DNA of 64,000 bases from Candidatus Micrarchaeota archaeon CG1_02_51_15 (GTDB lineage Archaea; Micrarchaeota; Micrarchaeia; Norongarragalinales; UBA8480). This document shows, piece by piece, positions 1,097 through 51,098 of this stretch. The stretch is from NCBI GenBank assembly GCA_001871495.1, contig MNVG01000007.1:4322-68321 (forward strand), given 5' to 3'. A program made the position numbers and the translations under genes. The first letter of the stretch is position 1. The number at the start of each line of letters is the position of its first letter. The notes under the pieces were generated by a model. It was not told the origin of the DNA. It made no database searches and was given only the letters and a program-made list of their open reading frames with translations.

Positions 1097-1245
1097 CGGG
1101 CTCGGCGGGATTTTCGGCCAAGCAAAAGCTGCAAAGCGTAGCATTTGCCTTGATTCGAACCCACGACCCCCTGGTTGCCTCCGAGATTCCGTTTTAAAGA
1201 ATTCGTTAAAAGCCAGGTGCTCTAGCCAAGCTGAGCTACGAGCCC
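1097..1245 (-). tRNA. tRNA-Lys(UUU) with two introns: canonical anticodon-loop intron and a 43-nt intron in the T-loop
   Basis: Minus-strand read: acceptor GGGCUCG pairs with CGAGCCC; D-arm GCUC/AGCUUGGCUA/GAGC; anticodon arm CCUGG-CUUUUA(intron)A-CCAGG; T-arm GUGGG-UUCGAAU-C(intron)CCGC. The mature length is about 75 nt after removing about 31 nt (anticodon loop) and 43 nt (T-loop, plus 1109..1151). A TATA-like element lies upstream. Confidence 0.6.
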
Positions 1246-9168: not shown

Positions 9169-9294
9169 GCAGGGGTGGCAGAGTCTGGTCAAACCCGCTT
9201 GTTTTTCACGGTCGAAACCAGGAGGGAACTTGATGCGCAGGACTCAGAATCCTGTGGCCTAGCGCCTGCGAGGGTTCAAATCCCTTCTCCTGCA
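9169..9294 (+). tRNA. tRNA-Leu(CAG) with a 39-nt non-canonical intron in the D-arm (between positions 22 and 23)
   Basis: Acceptor GCAGGGG pairs with CUCCUGC (one G-U). D-stem GCAG / C+(intron 9195..9233)+UGC. Anticodon arm CAGGA-CUCAGAA-UCCUG. Long variable arm. T-arm GAGGG-UUCAAAU-CCCUU. Discriminator A. The ORF 9175..9459 is spurious. Confidence 0.6.
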
Positions 9295-15421: not shown

Positions 15422-15533
15422 ACGTAATTAAAACAAAACAATATTTTGCGGCCTCGGAATTAAAAACAGGCATTATCACCGGTTTTAAGTGAAGCGTTTC
15501 AAGCACTTGCTTCCGCGCTTGAAAAAAAGCTTA

Positions 15534-15690
15534 CGGGCCTGGAGGGATTTTCGCACAAGCGAAAAAACTGCAAAACGCAACGTTTTGCTTGCATTTGAAC
15601 CCTCGACCTCGTGCTGGCTTCCCGTCTTTCCCCCGACTTCGGAAAAAAAGTTAGAAGGCACTTGCGCTATCCAGGCTGCGCCACAGGCCC
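15534..15690 (-). tRNA. tRNA-Arg(UCU) with two introns: canonical intron (about 35 nt) and a 46-nt T-loop intron related to that of tRNA-Lys
   Basis: Acceptor GGGCCUG/CAGGCCC. D-arm GCGC-AGCCUGGAUA-GCGC. Anticodon arm AGUGC-CUUCUA(intron)A-GCACG. T-arm GAGGG-UUCAAAU-(intron, plus 15547..15592)-CCCUC. Discriminator G. TATA (tttatat) lies about 30 nt upstream. This explains the GC-rich region that has no ORF; ORFs 15485..15757 and 15489..16217 are spurious. Confidence 0.55.
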
Positions 15691-15867
15691 ACGCGCAATA
15701 TTCTTGGAGCCGCGCGGATATAAAGTTTTTTAACTCGGCAAACCCTTTGGTTCTCAATGATCCAACTAGGCTGCCTGCCGCTGAAACTGGCTTTCGACCC
15801 CAAGACGCTCGCGCTGCGCCTCAACGGCCGAAAACTCGTACCGTCATTCGAGCGGACCGTAGGCGAA

Positions 15868-16521
15868 ATGCGGAGCGTAATGCTGAGCCCCCAGGCGGCG
15901 CTTTCAGACTCGTCGGTGTGCTACCGCGTGTTCCGCCGCGTCGAAAGGCCGGCCGACCGCAAGGCATTCGCGGAAAACGACTGCTCCTACGACGTTACGG
16001 TTCTCGAACGGTGCTTCCTGGGCCCGGAGCGCAACAAGACAATGGGCCACTACCACTCCATCGCATCCAACGGCTTGACTTACCCGGAGGTGTACGAAGT
16101 GCTGTACGGCGAAGCGCACTTCGTTTTACAGCGCCGCAGCGCGCCGTCTTCGCGGGAAGTGAGCGAAACCCTGTTCGTAACCGCCAAACAAGGAGAAAAA
16201 GTAGTGGTCGAACCTAGGTGGGGCCACGCTGTAATAAACGCCTCCCACGAGCCCCTCGTGCTGGCAAGCTTAGACTGCATGCTTAACGAAAGCGACTACG
16301 CGGCTTACTTGGAAAAGCACGGAGCGGCCTACTACAAGTTTGGCGCGAACAACCTCCTGCCCAACAAACACTACCACAAGCTTCCACCCCTCCACATATT
16401 CCCTGCTTCGTCGCTGAAACCGGTTCCCAAAATAGGGGAAGCCAACCTCTACGCAGACTACACCACCCACCCTCAACGGTACTCGTTCCTCAAAAACCCT
16501 GAAAGGATTTGGAAGGCCTGA
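15868..16521 (+). CDS. pgiA: cupin-type glucose-6-phosphate isomerase (archaeal cPGI)
   Basis: TMGHYHS metal-binding motif, EVYEVLYGEA, and PRWGHAVINASHEPLVLAS align with Pyrococcus cupin PGI. The ORF-track start 15757 probably over-extends. Confidence 0.7.
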   Translation: MRSVMLSPQAALSDSSVCYRVFRRVERPADRKAFAENDCSYDVTVLERCFLGPERNKTMGHYHSIASNGLTYPEVYEVLYGEAHFVLQRRSAPSSREVSETLFVTAKQGEKVVVEPRWGHAVINASHEPLVLASLDCMLNESDYAAYLEKHGAAYYKFGANNLLPNKHYHKLPPLHIFPASSLKPVPKIGEANLYADYTTHPQRYSFLKNPERIWKA

Positions 16522-41496: not shown

Positions 41497-42948
41497 GTGA
41501 TGCATTTGGCAACGGGAGACGCAAGACAGTTTTTGAAGACACTTAACGACAAGCAGAAGGCCTACGTGGACTTCGGCCTGAAAAACCCGCGCAACGGCGA
41601 GTACATGCTCACTGCCTTCAGGCTGGTTCCAGGCCGCGGCCTTAATTTCCTGCAAGCAGCCGCTGAAATAGCCGCCGAGTCGTCCACCGGAACCAACTTC
41701 AAGGTTCAAACAGAAACCGCATTCTCGCGAGAAATGAACGCCCTCGTTTACCAAGCCGACTCCAAGCGAAACCTTGTTTGGATTGCGTACCCTTGGCGGC
41801 TGTTCGACCGCCGCGGAAACGTCCAAAACATCCTCACTTACTTAGTCGGAAACGTTTTGGGAATGAAGGAAGTCGACGGCCTCAAGCTGTTGGACGTGTG
41901 GTTTCCACCTGCGATGCTCGAACAATACGACGGACCAAGCTACACGCTAGACGACATGCGCAAGTACCTGAAGGTCTATAACCGCCCCATTTTAGGCACA
42001 ATAGTAAAGCCAAAGATGGGCTTGACTTCCGCAGAGTACGCCGAAGTATGCTACGACTTCTGGGTCGGCGGAGGCGACTTCGTAAAAAACGACGAGCCGC
42101 AAGCCGACCAGGACTTCTGTCCCTATTACAAAATGGTCAAACACGTCAAGCAGGCGATGGACAAGGCAATCAAAAAAACTGGGAAGAAGAAAGTGCATTC
42201 GTTCAACGTGTCGGCAGCCGACTGCGACACGATGATAACGCGGTGTGAAATGATTCGCAACGCCGGCTTCGAACCAGGAAGTTACGCCTTCCTCATAGAC
42301 GGAATAATGGCAGGCTGGACCGCAGTCCAGACGCTGCGGCGGCGTTATCCCGACGTGTTCATCCACTTCCACCGTGCAGGGCACGGTGCGTTCACGCGGC
42401 CCGAAAACCCGTTTGGTTTTTCCGTGCTCGTACTCTCCAAGTTCGCGCGGCTTGCAGGCGCTTCAGGAATCCACACTGGCACAGCAGGCGTAGGCAAAAT
42501 GAAAGGCACCCCCGAAGAAGACGTGGTCGCAGCACACAACATACTGCACTTCAAAGACAAGGGCCACTTGTTCGAACAGGAATGGAACTTGATCCCCGAA
42601 AACGACAAGAACGCAATCGAACTGGTCCATTTGGACTTAGCACACCACGTCATCCTCGAAGACGATTCCTGGAGGGGAATGAAGAAGTGCTGCCCAATTG
42701 TTTCAGGCGGATTAAATCCCCTGCTGCTCAAGCCGTTCATTGACATGATGGGAAACACGGACTTCATAACAACAATGGGGGCCGGCTGCCACGCGCACCC
42801 TGAAGGAACCAAAGCAGGTGCAACTGCACTAGTTCAAGCCTGCGACGCCCAGCAAAAAAGAATACCCCTCGAAAAATACGCTAAAACTCACAAGGAACTT
42901 GCAACGGCAATAAAGTTTTTTGGAAAGAAAAAACGCAGGCCGGAATAA
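41497..42948 (+). CDS. rbcL: ribulose-1,5-bisphosphate carboxylase/oxygenase large subunit, form III (archaeal)
   Basis: AAESSTGT, GTIVKPKMGLT, GGGDFVKNDEP, HFHRAGHG and GGL motifs. No small subunit gene adjacent. 483 aa. Confidence 0.9.
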   Translation: MMHLATGDARQFLKTLNDKQKAYVDFGLKNPRNGEYMLTAFRLVPGRGLNFLQAAAEIAAESSTGTNFKVQTETAFSREMNALVYQADSKRNLVWIAYPWRLFDRRGNVQNILTYLVGNVLGMKEVDGLKLLDVWFPPAMLEQYDGPSYTLDDMRKYLKVYNRPILGTIVKPKMGLTSAEYAEVCYDFWVGGGDFVKNDEPQADQDFCPYYKMVKHVKQAMDKAIKKTGKKKVHSFNVSAADCDTMITRCEMIRNAGFEPGSYAFLIDGIMAGWTAVQTLRRRYPDVFIHFHRAGHGAFTRPENPFGFSVLVLSKFARLAGASGIHTGTAGVGKMKGTPEEDVVAAHNILHFKDKGHLFEQEWNLIPENDKNAIELVHLDLAHHVILEDDSWRGMKKCCPIVSGGLNPLLLKPFIDMMGNTDFITTMGAGCHAHPEGTKAGATALVQACDAQQKRIPLEKYAKTHKELATAIKFFGKKKRRPE

Positions 42949-47097: not shown

Positions 47098-47216
47098 GCG
47101 ACAGCGGTCATAGGAGTGGGGCAAGACCCGTTCCCTTTCCGAACACGGAAGTCACTCCCGCTTACGACTGCGCCAGTACTGTTCTGATGAACGGGAAAAC
47201 CGGTTTCTGCTGTCAC
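47098..47216 (+). rRNA. rrf: 5S ribosomal RNA (stand-alone)
   Basis: GCGACAGCGGUCAUAGG...CCGAACACGGAAGU...GCUGUCAC. Helix I pairing GACAGC/GCUGUC, conserved loop C/helix III motif. About 120 nt. The minus ORF 46746..47216 is spurious. Confidence 0.8.
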
Positions 47217-47262: not shown

Positions 47263-48288
47263 CTAACCAACTATTACGTCCAGCACTACTTCGTCTTCGA
47301 ACGGAGAATAATGTAAGACCGCGCGTTTGCTGATTATTCTACATTTTCGTCCCGCTTTTGCGCAAGCGGCGCGCACAAGCGACGAAGGCTTGCTAAAGGC
47401 ATCGAGCGTGTTTCTTTCGACATCCCTCCTTTGTCCAAAAGAATAGAAATGAACCACGCCCCCTCGCTTGAGCACCGCCAGCGCGCCGTCAAGGAATTCA
47501 TGGGCCGAATGAGGCAACGGCATTACCACTCGGTCGAACGCGCCGCAGTTGACGGGTTTTGCACAGAATTTTGCAGCGTCGGCGCGCACGGCTTTCACGC
47601 GACCGATAACCTTGTTTGCTTCAATATTTTTTTCAAGAAACGGAATTGCGTTCGGATTGAGTTCGACTGCCACGAAATGCGCAAGCGGCTGTTTTTTGGA
47701 ACCTATTATGGCAAAGGGACCGACACCTGCGAACAGCACGAGCACGCGCTCGCCTTCTTTGACCTGCACGGCAATGCGTTCGCGTTCGAATGAAAGACGG
47801 GAAGAAAAGTAAACCAATGCAGGGTCTACTGCAAACGAACAGCCGCTCTCACGGTGCACTGTTTCCGTGTCCCTGCGGCCTACGAGTACGCGCAGGCGGC
47901 GTACTCGGTACTTGCCGCTAAAAGCGCTCTTAAGCGCGACGCAACAGATGCGGGGATTGGTTTCAAGCAATATGCGCGCAGCTTCACCTGCCTTTCCAAT
48001 AGATTCCGCATCGATTAGCGCAACATCGCCTATTAGGTCAAAAGGAAATTCCAGAGCAGTTGGCTTGGACTTGTTTGGCTGAAAGCGGGCGCGAGTTATT
48101 TCGTGTTCGAATGGAAGGACCACAGACGCATCGCGGGAGATGGGAAACAGGATGAATTCTTTTTTCTTCAAAGGAGCGTATTCGTGCGAAAGGACGTTTT
48201 CACTAAGGAGAAACCGTTTGGCCCGCTCTGCGTCTTTAAGCCTGACTTTAACTGCTTTCAAAACGCGTTTGGCAACCGGATTCATCAT
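47263..48288 (-). CDS. trm5: tRNA (guanine37-N1)-methyltransferase Trm5 (Trm5/TYW2-Taw2 family)
   Basis: Class I MTase with LVLFAGVGPFAI and VELNPNA (Trm5/TYW2 motifs). About 340 aa from the internal Met. The basic 47-aa N-terminal extension in the ORF track is probably not translated. Confidence 0.7.
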   Translation of the reverse strand: MMNPVAKRVLKAVKVRLKDAERAKRFLLSENVLSHEYAPLKKKEFILFPISRDASVVLPFEHEITRARFQPNKSKPTALEFPFDLIGDVALIDAESIGKAGEAARILLETNPRICCVALKSAFSGKYRVRRLRVLVGRRDTETVHRESGCSFAVDPALVYFSSRLSFERERIAVQVKEGERVLVLFAGVGPFAIIGSKKQPLAHFVAVELNPNAIPFLEKNIEANKVIGRVKAVRADAAKFCAKPVNCGAFDRVVMPLPHSAHEFLDGALAVLKRGGVVHFYSFGQRRDVERNTLDAFSKPSSLVRAACAKAGRKCRIISKRAVLHYSPFEDEVVLDVIVG

Positions 48289-48320
48289 TGTTTTAAAACT
48301 TTGGCTGCTTAAAGGTTTTT

Positions 48321-49175
48321 GTGGACTTTTCTTCTTTTTTGGATAGTTATTTCTTAGAGCCATTGCGCAGGCCCGGAGAAGCCGCGCCTTACAATTGGGC
48401 GAATACGCTAGCGTACGCAGTTGCCGCATTGGTTGCTACTTTTGCAATATTCAAGGGCTTGCAACGGCTCAAAATAAAAATAGACGGAAAATTTTTTGCG
48501 GCAATACTGCCGTTCGTGTTATTCGGCAGTGCACTGCGAGTTGCCCAGGACGCAGGAACGTTGCCGCGCGCAGTCGATTTTTTCGGGCTCGAACTTTTTC
48601 CATTCGTGACTCCCGGGATTTATTTGATTACTTTTGGGCTGGTCGCACTGTCTATTGACGCGGCGCTTGCTGTTGAAAAAAAAACAGGCATTCCGTTATG
48701 GAAGACAGTCGGAGGAATCGGCTTGATTCTAGCGTTAGGCGCCTTGCTTCCCGCATTGGGGATTGCCAAGTATTGGTTGCACGGCTTGCTGGCTCTGCTT
48801 ATGGGCTGTAGCGGCATATTGTTGTTCAAACTGGCTGCAGTAGCGTTCAAGCACAGGACGGAATGGATGGAACACGCGGCGGTTTTCGGCCAATGTTTTG
48901 ACGGCGCGGCAACGTTTGTTGGAATTGGAATAGGCACGCCTTCGGCACAGTATTTCGAACAGCACGCTGTAGGCGGCACCTTGATTGAAGCAGCGGGTCC
49001 GCTGGCATTCTATGCACTTAAGGTAGTGTTCGCGCTGGCAGCGGTTACGATTGTGCGAAACGAGTTCATTAAAAAAGAGGACGCCGAAAAGAAGACTTAT
49101 GTACTGTTGCTGCTTACTATCTTCGGCTTGGCGCCTGGAGCACGCGACGTCCTTAGGATAATGGCAGGAGTTTGA
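48321..49175 (+). CDS. polytopic integral membrane protein (archaeal DUF63-like)
   Basis: 284 aa with seven or more TM helices. Its stop overlaps the start of the next gene (ATGA). Confidence 0.5.
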   Translation: MDFSSFLDSYFLEPLRRPGEAAPYNWANTLAYAVAALVATFAIFKGLQRLKIKIDGKFFAAILPFVLFGSALRVAQDAGTLPRAVDFFGLELFPFVTPGIYLITFGLVALSIDAALAVEKKTGIPLWKTVGGIGLILALGALLPALGIAKYWLHGLLALLMGCSGILLFKLAAVAFKHRTEWMEHAAVFGQCFDGAATFVGIGIGTPSAQYFEQHAVGGTLIEAAGPLAFYALKVVFALAAVTIVRNEFIKKEDAEKKTYVLLLLTIFGLAPGARDVLRIMAGV

Positions 49176-50138: not shown

Positions 50139-51098
50139 TTAAGAAAACAACAGACGTTGCCTTGCAGCTTCAGCATCGCGGCATAATAGTACTACCCGCG
50201 AAGGAATGTGTTCGACAGAATACAAATATCCGGTTTGACTCGCGAGTTCCGCTGCAAATACGGTTATTTCTTGATGTGAAGGCATTGCCTGCACGCCCAA
50301 CCGCTCGCGGCTTGAACCAAGCGCCATCCATGCTTTTACTTCACAGTAATCACAGCCACTGGCCTTGATTATTTCAGAGTATTCTTTAGCGCGGCCAAAA
50401 TTGAATCCCTTTGCCAAGGTCATGCGCAGTACAGTACGGGTTTGTCCTTGCAACCTCTTCATTTCCGCAATTGACTCCAAAAACGCGAGCCATGCACTGG
50501 AAGAGAGGTTTCCGCTGGCTTTGGCAAATGACGCCGCATCCCACGCGTTCAGCGAGAGATATAACTGGGTTGGCAACGCGTGCTCTTCTTTCAAAAGCCG
50601 CAGTACTTCAGGATGCAAGCCGTTTGAAACCACGAAGGAAGTCATTTTTCGATCCCGTATTTCCTTAATTAGTTCCGAAAGACGAGGATAAAGAGTCGGC
50701 TCACCCATCAACGAAATGGCGACGTGCAGGGGTGCCTGCGCTTCTTCGAGCCGAGATACGTCGGCTTTTGGGTTGCCTGCAAACCCGTTGAGCAAATGCC
50801 GTTGGGCCTCGATTGCCGAATCGATTATTTCCGAAGGGGAGTCGGCAGCGCCTTGCCAGGTTTTGCCTAAGAACGAGGTTTCACGCCAGCAGTGGGGACA
50901 GGAATTATCGCAATACATTCCGGCTGCAAGTTGAAGACACCGCCAACTCCTTATTCCATAGAAAGCGTGTTTGTAACACTCGCCTCCGCCAATAAGCGCT
51001 TTCTTGGTCCAAGCGCATACCTTTATTGCAGCATGTTTCGACGGCCCGACAAAGAAATAGCCTGCGCGCATCATTTGCCCTGCTTGTAAAGAATCCAT
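50139..51098 (-). CDS. taw1: tRNA 4-demethylwyosine synthase Taw1 (TYW1, radical SAM)
   Basis: KVCAWTKKAL, GGECYKHAFYGIRSWRC and radical SAM YCDNSCPHCWR all follow the archaeal Taw1 pattern. 319 aa. Confidence 0.8.
   Translation of the reverse strand: MDSLQAGQMMRAGYFFVGPSKHAAIKVCAWTKKALIGGGECYKHAFYGIRSWRCLQLAAGMYCDNSCPHCWRETSFLGKTWQGAADSPSEIIDSAIEAQRHLLNGFAGNPKADVSRLEEAQAPLHVAISLMGEPTLYPRLSELIKEIRDRKMTSFVVSNGLHPEVLRLLKEEHALPTQLYLSLNAWDAASFAKASGNLSSSAWLAFLESIAEMKRLQGQTRTVLRMTLAKGFNFGRAKEYSEIIKASGCDYCEVKAWMALGSSRERLGVQAMPSHQEITVFAAELASQTGYLYSVEHIPSRVVLLCRDAEAARQRLLFS

Follow-up and report, generated by a model that had tools for sequence, protein, structure and literature searches.

A probable three-exon tRNA-Arg(UCU) gene in Candidatus Micrarchaeota archaeon CG1_02_51_15, with a T-loop intron similar to those of other tRNA genes

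A 157-nt locus on the minus strand of the window (the whole 64,000-nt stretch of DNA that was analysed) is, with a probability of about 0.88, a functional tRNA-Arg(UCU) gene of Candidatus Micrarchaeota archaeon CG1_02_51_15 in three exons, a reading that draws on sequence analysis and comparison. The exons join to a canonical 75-nt cloverleaf with the anticodon UCU, and the two introns that separate them are placed at the canonical 37/38 site and, most likely, at 59/60 in the T-loop (Table 1). A two-intron tRNA-Arg(UCU) had been proposed for the minus strand at 15534-15690 in a preliminary description of the window, and this proposal was borne out by splicing, folding and an independent covariance model.

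Table 1. Position and content of the features discussed. Coordinates are those of the window unless a locus number (L), denoting a locus recovered in the scans, is given.
Feature	Position	Strand	Description
tRNA-Arg(UCU) gene	15690..15534	minus	157 nt including discriminator G73; exons of 39, 22 and 14 nt and two introns
Exon 1	15652..15690	minus	39 nt, tRNA positions 1-37: acceptor 5' strand, D arm, anticodon stem 5' strand, C32 U33 U34 C35 U36 A37
Intron 1	15616..15651	minus	36 nt; canonical 37/38 site, strict hBHBh' (BHB scan, minimum-energy folds, R1 insertion)
Exon 2	15594..15615	minus	22 nt, positions 38-59: A38, anticodon stem 3' strand, variable loop AGGUC, T stem 5' strand GAGGG, T-loop UUCAAA
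Intron 2	15548..15593	minus	46 nt; T-loop, best placement 59/60, relaxed BHB; member of the paralogous intron family
Exon 3	15534..15547	minus	14 nt: U60, T stem 3' strand CCCUC, acceptor 3' strand CAGGCCC, discriminator G73
Putative promoter	15718..15731	minus	A-rich BRE-like run 15731-15725 and TATA box TTTATAT 15724-15718, at -34..-28 from tRNA position 1
Presumed oligo-T terminator	15522..15528	minus	T7 run, 5 nt after the discriminator
tRNA-Lys(UUU)	1245..1097	minus	149 nt; 31 nt at 37/38 (1206-1176) and 43 nt at 59/60 (1153-1111)
tRNA-Leu(CAG)	9169-9294	plus	D-loop insertion of about 43-45 nt
tRNA-Glu(UUC)	L099; L102:1047-1208		59/60 intron family; long U/A-rich D-loop insertion
tRNA-Asn(GUU)	L100	minus	59/60 intron family
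Mature Arg sequence shared by Micrarchaeota: no intron	L049, L067, L081		
Same sequence: T-loop intron only	L012, L090		
Same sequence: 37/38 intron only	L024, L058		
Same sequence: both introns	L045		

The tRNA-Arg(UCU) locus and its detection

On the minus strand, exon 1 reads GGGCCUG-UG-GCGC-AGCCUGGAUA-GCGC-A-AGUGC-CUUCUA and is followed by 36 nt, after which the remainder of the gene reads A-GCACG-AGGUC-GAGGG-UUCAAA, 46 nt, and U-CCCUC-CAGGCCC-G, with no CCA encoded. Removal in silico of 15651-15616 (36 nt) and 15593-15548 (46 nt) gave a 75-nt sequence that forms a cloverleaf with standard pairs at 20 of 21 positions, the sole non-standard pair being A27.G43, where 10 of 48 relatives have G27.A43. 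The conserved nucleotides U8, A14, G18 G19, U33 and G53 U54 U55 C56 A58 C61 are all present in the spliced sequence, and the anticodon UCU lies in a 7-nt loop, as read from this sequence and from the ARAGORN drawing. ARAGORN called the spliced 75-mer tRNA-Arg(tct) with a score of 118.7 (range for the 48 relatives 116-125) and called none of 500 shuffles of it a tRNA. The D arm and anticodon loop are identical in 90 tRNA-Arg(UCU) genes of other archaea. In the unconstrained minimum-energy fold of the 157-nt precursor (-61.6 kcal/mol, z = -2.78 against dinucleotide shuffles), the acceptor, D, anticodon and T stems all form. Five public assemblies carry the locus and all copies are 100% identical, so that the population-level signal is nil.

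An independent covariance model, R1, was trained on 48 distinct mature tRNA-Arg(UCU) sequences from other organisms only, all of them from genes that are intronless or interrupted at 37/38 alone; these were aligned with the cloverleaf imposed, and the window sequence was left out. The best match of R1 in the whole window was 15534-15690(-), with 68.6 bits and an E value of 2.5e-13 over model positions 1-75, i.e. the full length, and with two insertions skipped, of 37 nt after A37 and of 47 nt after A59. In the second match, 1097-1245(-) (58 bits, E 6.1e-11), 32 and 44 nt were skipped at these two sites; it corresponds to tRNA-Lys(UUU), and the match to tRNA-Pro (50.1 bits, E 3.8e-09) had no insertion. 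When the filters were switched off on a 600-nt slice, R1 gave only a partial match at the Arg locus (15610-15690, 29.6 bits), which is taken to be a hit-length limit of that mode, and the default run was relied on. Intronless relatives that are 88-91% identical to the spliced Arg sequence scored 69-71 bits on Rfam RF00005, which has a gathering score of 29. A covariance score below threshold after splicing, which the preliminary description had named as grounds for giving up the gene, was thus not what was found, since both the R1 result and the scores of these close relatives point the other way.

The unspliced gene is silent in ARAGORN and Rfam searches. ARAGORN, with or without its -i intron option, missed it and found only tRNA-Leu and tRNA-Pro in the window, and Rfam RF00005 gave no match at the Arg locus either at the gathering score or at E<=10 on a 400-nt slice, the Rfam matches within the window being tRNA-Pro, tRNA-Leu and one 5S rRNA. 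The gene for tRNA-Lys(UUU) was likewise missed by both programs in the unspliced window, and once spliced it was called Lys(ttt) by ARAGORN with a score of 124.3. The silence at the Arg locus reflects the limits of the tools, not the absence of a gene. The earlier expectation that standard gene callers may miss such tRNAs holds for ARAGORN and Rfam, which are the only callers for which it is shown. tRNAscan-SE 2.0 does look for non-canonical introns, using models that were trained on Crenarchaeota/Euryarchaeota and Thaumarchaeota (PMC8450103).

Several statements about the surroundings of the locus could be checked directly. The gap between tRNA-Pro and pgi, given beforehand as roughly 450 nt and GC-rich, measures 335 nt and has 47% GC against 49.5% for the window; only the exons are rich (64%), and the introns have 53% (intron 1) and 41% (intron 2). 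A TATA box of the gene's own, some 30 nt upstream, had been described correctly, and we read 15718..15731 as the putative promoter from the usual archaeal promoter spacing, just as the T7 run at 15522..15528 is presumed to be the terminator of the Arg gene. The two open reading frames that run over the locus, 15485..15757 (-) and 15489..16217 (+), had been dismissed as artefacts, in agreement with the absence of any Pfam match for either, even at E 0.1, and of any corresponding gene call in the five assemblies; the plus-strand frame overlaps the gene for a cupin-type glucose-6-phosphate isomerase out of frame. The count of three interrupted genes among the four tRNA genes of the window also stands, these being Arg, Lys(UUU) and Leu(CAG), with Pro(CGG) uninterrupted. 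For tRNA-Leu(CAG), Rfam gives 47 bits across the insertion and ARAGORN a truncated 78-nt call, and the best BHB candidate for its D-loop intron removes 9194-9236, with ambiguous boundaries.

By standard wobble rules, AGA requires a UCU anticodon. Codon counts over 35 window ORFs, almost all of which match a Pfam family, give 50 AGA and 113 AGG among 727 Arg codons, and this shows the need for such a tRNA only. The housekeeping genes of the window include those for thermosome, aIF2-gamma, class I LysRS, RuBisCO, Trm5 and a wyosine enzyme, and no splicing endonuclease domain was found among the approximately 54 window ORFs scanned with Pfam. Other features observed in this DPANN genome are a RuBisCO large-subunit homolog, presumably of form III (41497-42948, plus strand), the cupin-type glucose-6-phosphate isomerase (15757-16521, plus strand) and a stand-alone 5S rRNA gene (47100-47215, plus strand, 59 bits), which is the only rRNA gene in the 64-kb window and adjoins a Trm5-like tRNA methyltransferase gene (47263-48429), with a gene for a radical SAM enzyme of wyosine formation nearby (50139-51098).

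Intron sites and motifs

Intron 1 has the canonical archaeal BHB (hBHBh') at 37/38. Its central helix consists of four Watson-Crick pairs between C32-U33-U34-C35 and GAAG (CUUC/GAAG), and its bulges are U36 A37|A and C C|A38, giving a 3-4-3 motif in which the outer helix is the anticodon stem and the inner helix leads to a U-rich/G-rich hairpin. The 3' bulge and the central helix are seen in the unconstrained minimum-energy fold, and four pairs are present in the central helix in 34 of 48 37/38 introns of relatives. The canonical archaeal hBHBh' intron at 37/38, as far as it is described where Marck and Grosjean (2003) is cited in PMC8450103, is likewise 3-4-3 and cut between the second and third bulge nucleotides, and on that description Arg intron 1 differs from it only by an internal run of seven U. 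This T7 run lies at 15643-15649 (-). The canonical introns of Arg and Lys(UUU) are not convincingly related to each other, 99 of 5000 shuffles scoring as high.

The placement of intron 2 needs more discussion. Cuts at any position from 56/57 through 60/61 leave the same mature T-loop, UUCAAAU, so that the sequence itself cannot fix the cut site, and a scan of every T-arm register for a strict 3-4-3 BHB found none that fits. In the 59/60 register, which is the most likely placement, the 3' strand carries, beyond the 5-bp T stem, first the bulge A A|U60 and then CGAA, the GAA of which forms three pairs with U54 U55 C56, with an A57.C mismatch as the fourth position. The 5' cut, A59|U, falls in a small asymmetric internal loop of 2-4 nt without a clean 3-nt bulge, and the inner helix GCAAGC/GCUUGU is displaced by one nucleotide. 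The motif is thus relaxed and hBH-like, with a cut in a 3-nt bulge between the exon helix and the central helix. Nearest-neighbour folding of the segment favours two intron-internal hairpins (-21.8 kcal/mol) over the best fold that keeps the T stem and UUC/GAA (-18.4 kcal/mol), and assigns the UUC/GAA pairs a predicted probability of about 1%. This predicted energy cost of the relaxed motif is where the case is weakest, and it is counted as evidence against the case.

Some further features of intron 2 were observed. An intron-internal U run with CGC (UUUUCGC) can pair with the GCGAAAA 3' end, the same end that is needed by the T-loop pairing; this competing hairpin is the predicted favoured fold and is possible in four of five members of the family described below (Arg and the paralogs in L099, L100 and L103), the window's Lys copy being the one in which it is not. 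A T6 run lies within the intron at 15562-15567 (-). Archaeal transcription terminates at oligo-T, and the intronic T7 (intron 1) and T6 (intron 2) runs, which are about as long as the presumed terminator of the gene, could lead to premature termination.

Comparison with other archaea was based on a scan with a D arm and anticodon loop pattern, one genome per species, which gave the 90 tRNA-Arg(UCU) loci mentioned above, mostly from Micrarchaeota, Woesearchaeota and other DPANN and some from Bathyarchaeota and Thaumarchaeota. Among the 88 that were parsed, 39 were interrupted by an intron at 37/38 alone, 11 had an insertion in the T-loop alone, eight had both and 30 were without introns, although the assignment of L017 and L041 to the T-loop-only group looks spurious. 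One mature Arg sequence occurs in all four states across different Micrarchaeota (Table 1). In 14 T-loop introns of relatives, the terminal tetranucleotide forms 3-4 bp with UUCA and is followed by NN|U and the T stem, in the same layout as in Arg intron 2. Together, these comparative sequence data support the view that such insertions are probably introns. Beyond these shared ends, no clear similarity was found between the Arg T-loop intron and the T-loop introns in tRNA-Arg of other Micrarchaeota species, and no synteny was found between the window and the 90 genome loci. A 19-nt match to the Arg T-loop intron in L031 was discounted, as it lies on the opposite strand, inside a long intron and within a palindromic hairpin.

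The same set of loci included long T-loop insertions, of 116-229 nt, in tRNA-Arg of other Micrarchaeota (L009, L031, L052, L066, L072 and L085), with a CCCTTTTCTTTGAAAAAGAAAAGG-like palindrome common to L031, L066, L072 and L085. In two further Micrarchaeota tRNA-Arg genes, L091 and L094, the T-loop intron seemingly sits elsewhere, directly after U54, and is accompanied by a 14-nt intron at 37/38.

A T-loop intron family in several tRNA genes

The T-loop introns of Arg and Lys(UUU) are identical at 34 of 46 positions, with an alignment score of 20 against -9.7 +/- 3.8 for shuffles, i.e. 7.8 SD above the shuffles, and none of 5000 shuffles reached that score. The conserved part of the intron was used as a pattern to scan metagenome contigs, and the scan recovered the Arg locus itself, tRNA-Glu(UUC) (two loci), tRNA-Asn(GUU) and, as L103, the homolog of the Lys gene in a relative that shares 65-79% protein identity with the window. 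The other five of the ten matches (L096, L098, L101, L104 and L105) were rejected as chance hits, none being a tRNA gene. The T-loop introns of Glu and Asn are about 91% identical to the Arg intron. Proteins from the Asn and Glu contigs have identical counterparts in Candidatus Micrarchaeota archaeon CG1_02_51_15, which also holds the isomerase and thermosome of the window; the contigs therefore belong to one genome, in which the 59/60 intron is present in at least four tRNA genes of differing identity. Similar introns in tRNAs of different amino acid identity, with differing exons, are the mark of a paralogous ('transposed') family, and on sequence comparison the introns found here form one; as the means of movement, transposition, reverse splicing and gene conversion would all be compatible with the sequences.

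In an alignment of the five sequences, a fold consisting of the T stem, UUCR/CGAA, CAAG/CUUG and the inner hairpin is paired in 94.8% of cells, compared with 22-55% when the partners are slid. The helices are mostly invariant, and conservation, not covariation, is therefore what this shows. The tRNAs with G57 (Lys and Asn) have a full central helix of 4 bp, UUCG/CGAA, whereas in those with A57 (Arg and Glu) the C of the intron is unchanged and mismatched, as expected if the intron arrived with its own CGAA and did not evolve in place. For the Lys, Asn and L103 Lys paralogs, the fold of minimum energy is the one in the 59/60 register.

UUCR and the T stem occur in nearly every tRNA, and an intron that carries CGAA could therefore work in any of them, which would explain its spread. 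It is tentatively suggested, at somewhat short of even odds, that the 59/60 intron belongs to a portable Micrarchaeota family that has been spreading recently, in which the intron's own CGAA complements the universal T-loop UUCR and so forms a cleavable motif in whichever tRNA gene it enters, and which has colonised at least the Arg, Lys, Glu and Asn genes of one genome. The conserved internal hairpins of the family, one of which competes with the T-loop for the CGAA end, may serve this spread or may regulate splicing.

Processing, alternative readings and known systems

If the locus works as proposed, transcription would start from the TATA box about 30 nt upstream and end at the T7 run, and RNase P and RNase Z would trim the ends of the tRNA. 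A broad-specificity splicing endonuclease, expected in Micrarchaeota to be epsilon2 EndA (the enzyme type being assumed from the lineage), would cut both motifs, an RtcB-type ligase would join the exons, CCA would be added afterwards, and the mature product would decode AGA (and AGG).

Intact exons, with 20 of 21 pairs, all conserved positions and 68.6 bits on an independent model, are hard to reconcile with a dead or dying tRNA gene, that is, a pseudogene in which the T-loop insertion, and perhaps both insertions, would never be spliced. Such a reading would account for a BHB in intron 2 that is imperfect and is not the lowest-energy fold, and for the T7 and T6 runs within the introns, yet it is considered very unlikely: the same insertion also occupies this site in the Lys(UUU), Glu(UUC) and Asn(GUU) genes of this genome, and it would be necessary to postulate the simultaneous loss of four isoacceptors, which is implausible, AGA codons are in use, identical mature Arg sequences occur with and without such insertions in related Micrarchaeota, and relaxed 59/60 introns are cleaved by the ARMAN-2 enzyme (PMC3239211). 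The chance that the region codes for protein, with an incidental resemblance to a tRNA, is negligible; both frames exist mechanically, but neither has a Pfam match or was called in any of the assemblies that carry the locus, the plus-strand frame runs out of frame through the isomerase gene, and the tRNA model matches with an E value of 2.5e-13.

A reading that keeps the gene and changes only the handling of intron 2 is somewhat less remote than these, though still unlikely. In that case the cut would be made elsewhere than 59/60, or the intron would be recognised via another fold, such as the hairpin UUUUCGC/GCGAAAA abutting the T stem. The equivalence of the cuts from 56/57 to 60/61 in their mature product leaves room for this, as does the internal hairpin, which is predicted to be favoured and can form in four of five paralogs, according to the aligned sequences read by eye. 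However, the window's Lys copy lacks the internal hairpin and keeps the T-loop pairing, and 59/60 is the only register in which the 3' cut falls within a 3-nt bulge that has the T stem on one side and a helix on the other, besides being the register of the minimum-energy fold in the three paralogs named above. Its layout also recurs in the 14 unrelated T-loop introns of other Micrarchaeota, and 59/60 is a site cleaved experimentally in ARMAN-2 (PMC3239211). A functional gene with a relaxed intron at 59/60 is therefore retained as the preferred reading.

Under annotation with ARAGORN or Rfam, the MAG and its relatives will seem to be without tRNA-Arg(UCU), Lys(UUU), Glu(UUC) and Asn(GUU), and tRNAs missed in this way can distort completeness estimates and suggest false decoding gaps in DPANN genomes. 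Four tRNA genes with a single intron family at the same position make a compact example that bears on the gain of tRNA introns in archaea, and the link between a broad-specificity endonuclease and heavily interrupted tRNAs would be extended to Micrarchaeota of neutral groundwater, with the enzyme assumed here from the lineage.

The closest known system is that of ARMAN-2 (Candidatus Micrarchaeum acidiphilum), where interruptions affect 56% of the tRNA genes, in many cases at non-canonical positions such as 59/60 (Fujishima et al. 2011, PMC3239211). A relaxed hBH intron sits at 59/60 in its pre-tRNA-Cys, and strict as well as relaxed motifs were cleaved in vitro by its epsilon2 endonuclease, an enzyme of three units (PMC3239211); multi-intron tRNAs have been listed for ARMAN-1 and ARMAN-2 (PMC4033280). 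The suggestion in the preliminary description of a lineage with pervasive tRNA introns holds in the light of these figures for a related organism. The present locus resembles ARMAN-2 in belonging to the same phylum, in having introns at 37/38 and at the non-canonical 59/60 site, the latter relaxed and hBH-like, in the possibility of several introns per gene and in having tRNA genes that are missed by default tRNA finders. It differs in coming from another genus-level organism of neutral groundwater with 50% GC, and in the tRNA concerned, the ARMAN-2 examples being Cys(GCA), Pro(GGG) and Ile(UAU). Paralogous introns shared between tRNA genes, as present here, are not reported in the ARMAN-2 paper (PMC3239211).

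Similar introns in different tRNAs have been read as intron transposition in Thermoproteales (Sugahara et al. 2008 and Fujishima et al. 2010), and the comparison made here follows the summary of that work in PMC4033280. Judged by that summary, the two systems have in common two or more BHB introns per gene, similar introns in different tRNA species, which implies a spread between genes, and 59/60 as a recurrent site, while the Thermoproteales are Crenarchaeota with an (alpha-beta)2 endonuclease and not DPANN, and the Micrarchaeota family is distinguished by having one site only so far and a 3' end whose pairing partner is the T-loop itself. Earlier work has already described multi-intron tRNAs, relaxed 59/60 introns in Micrarchaeota and the spread of introns between tRNAs, and current understanding is unchanged; the modest addition made here is a paralogous intron family confined to a single site, together with a simple proposed reason for its portability.
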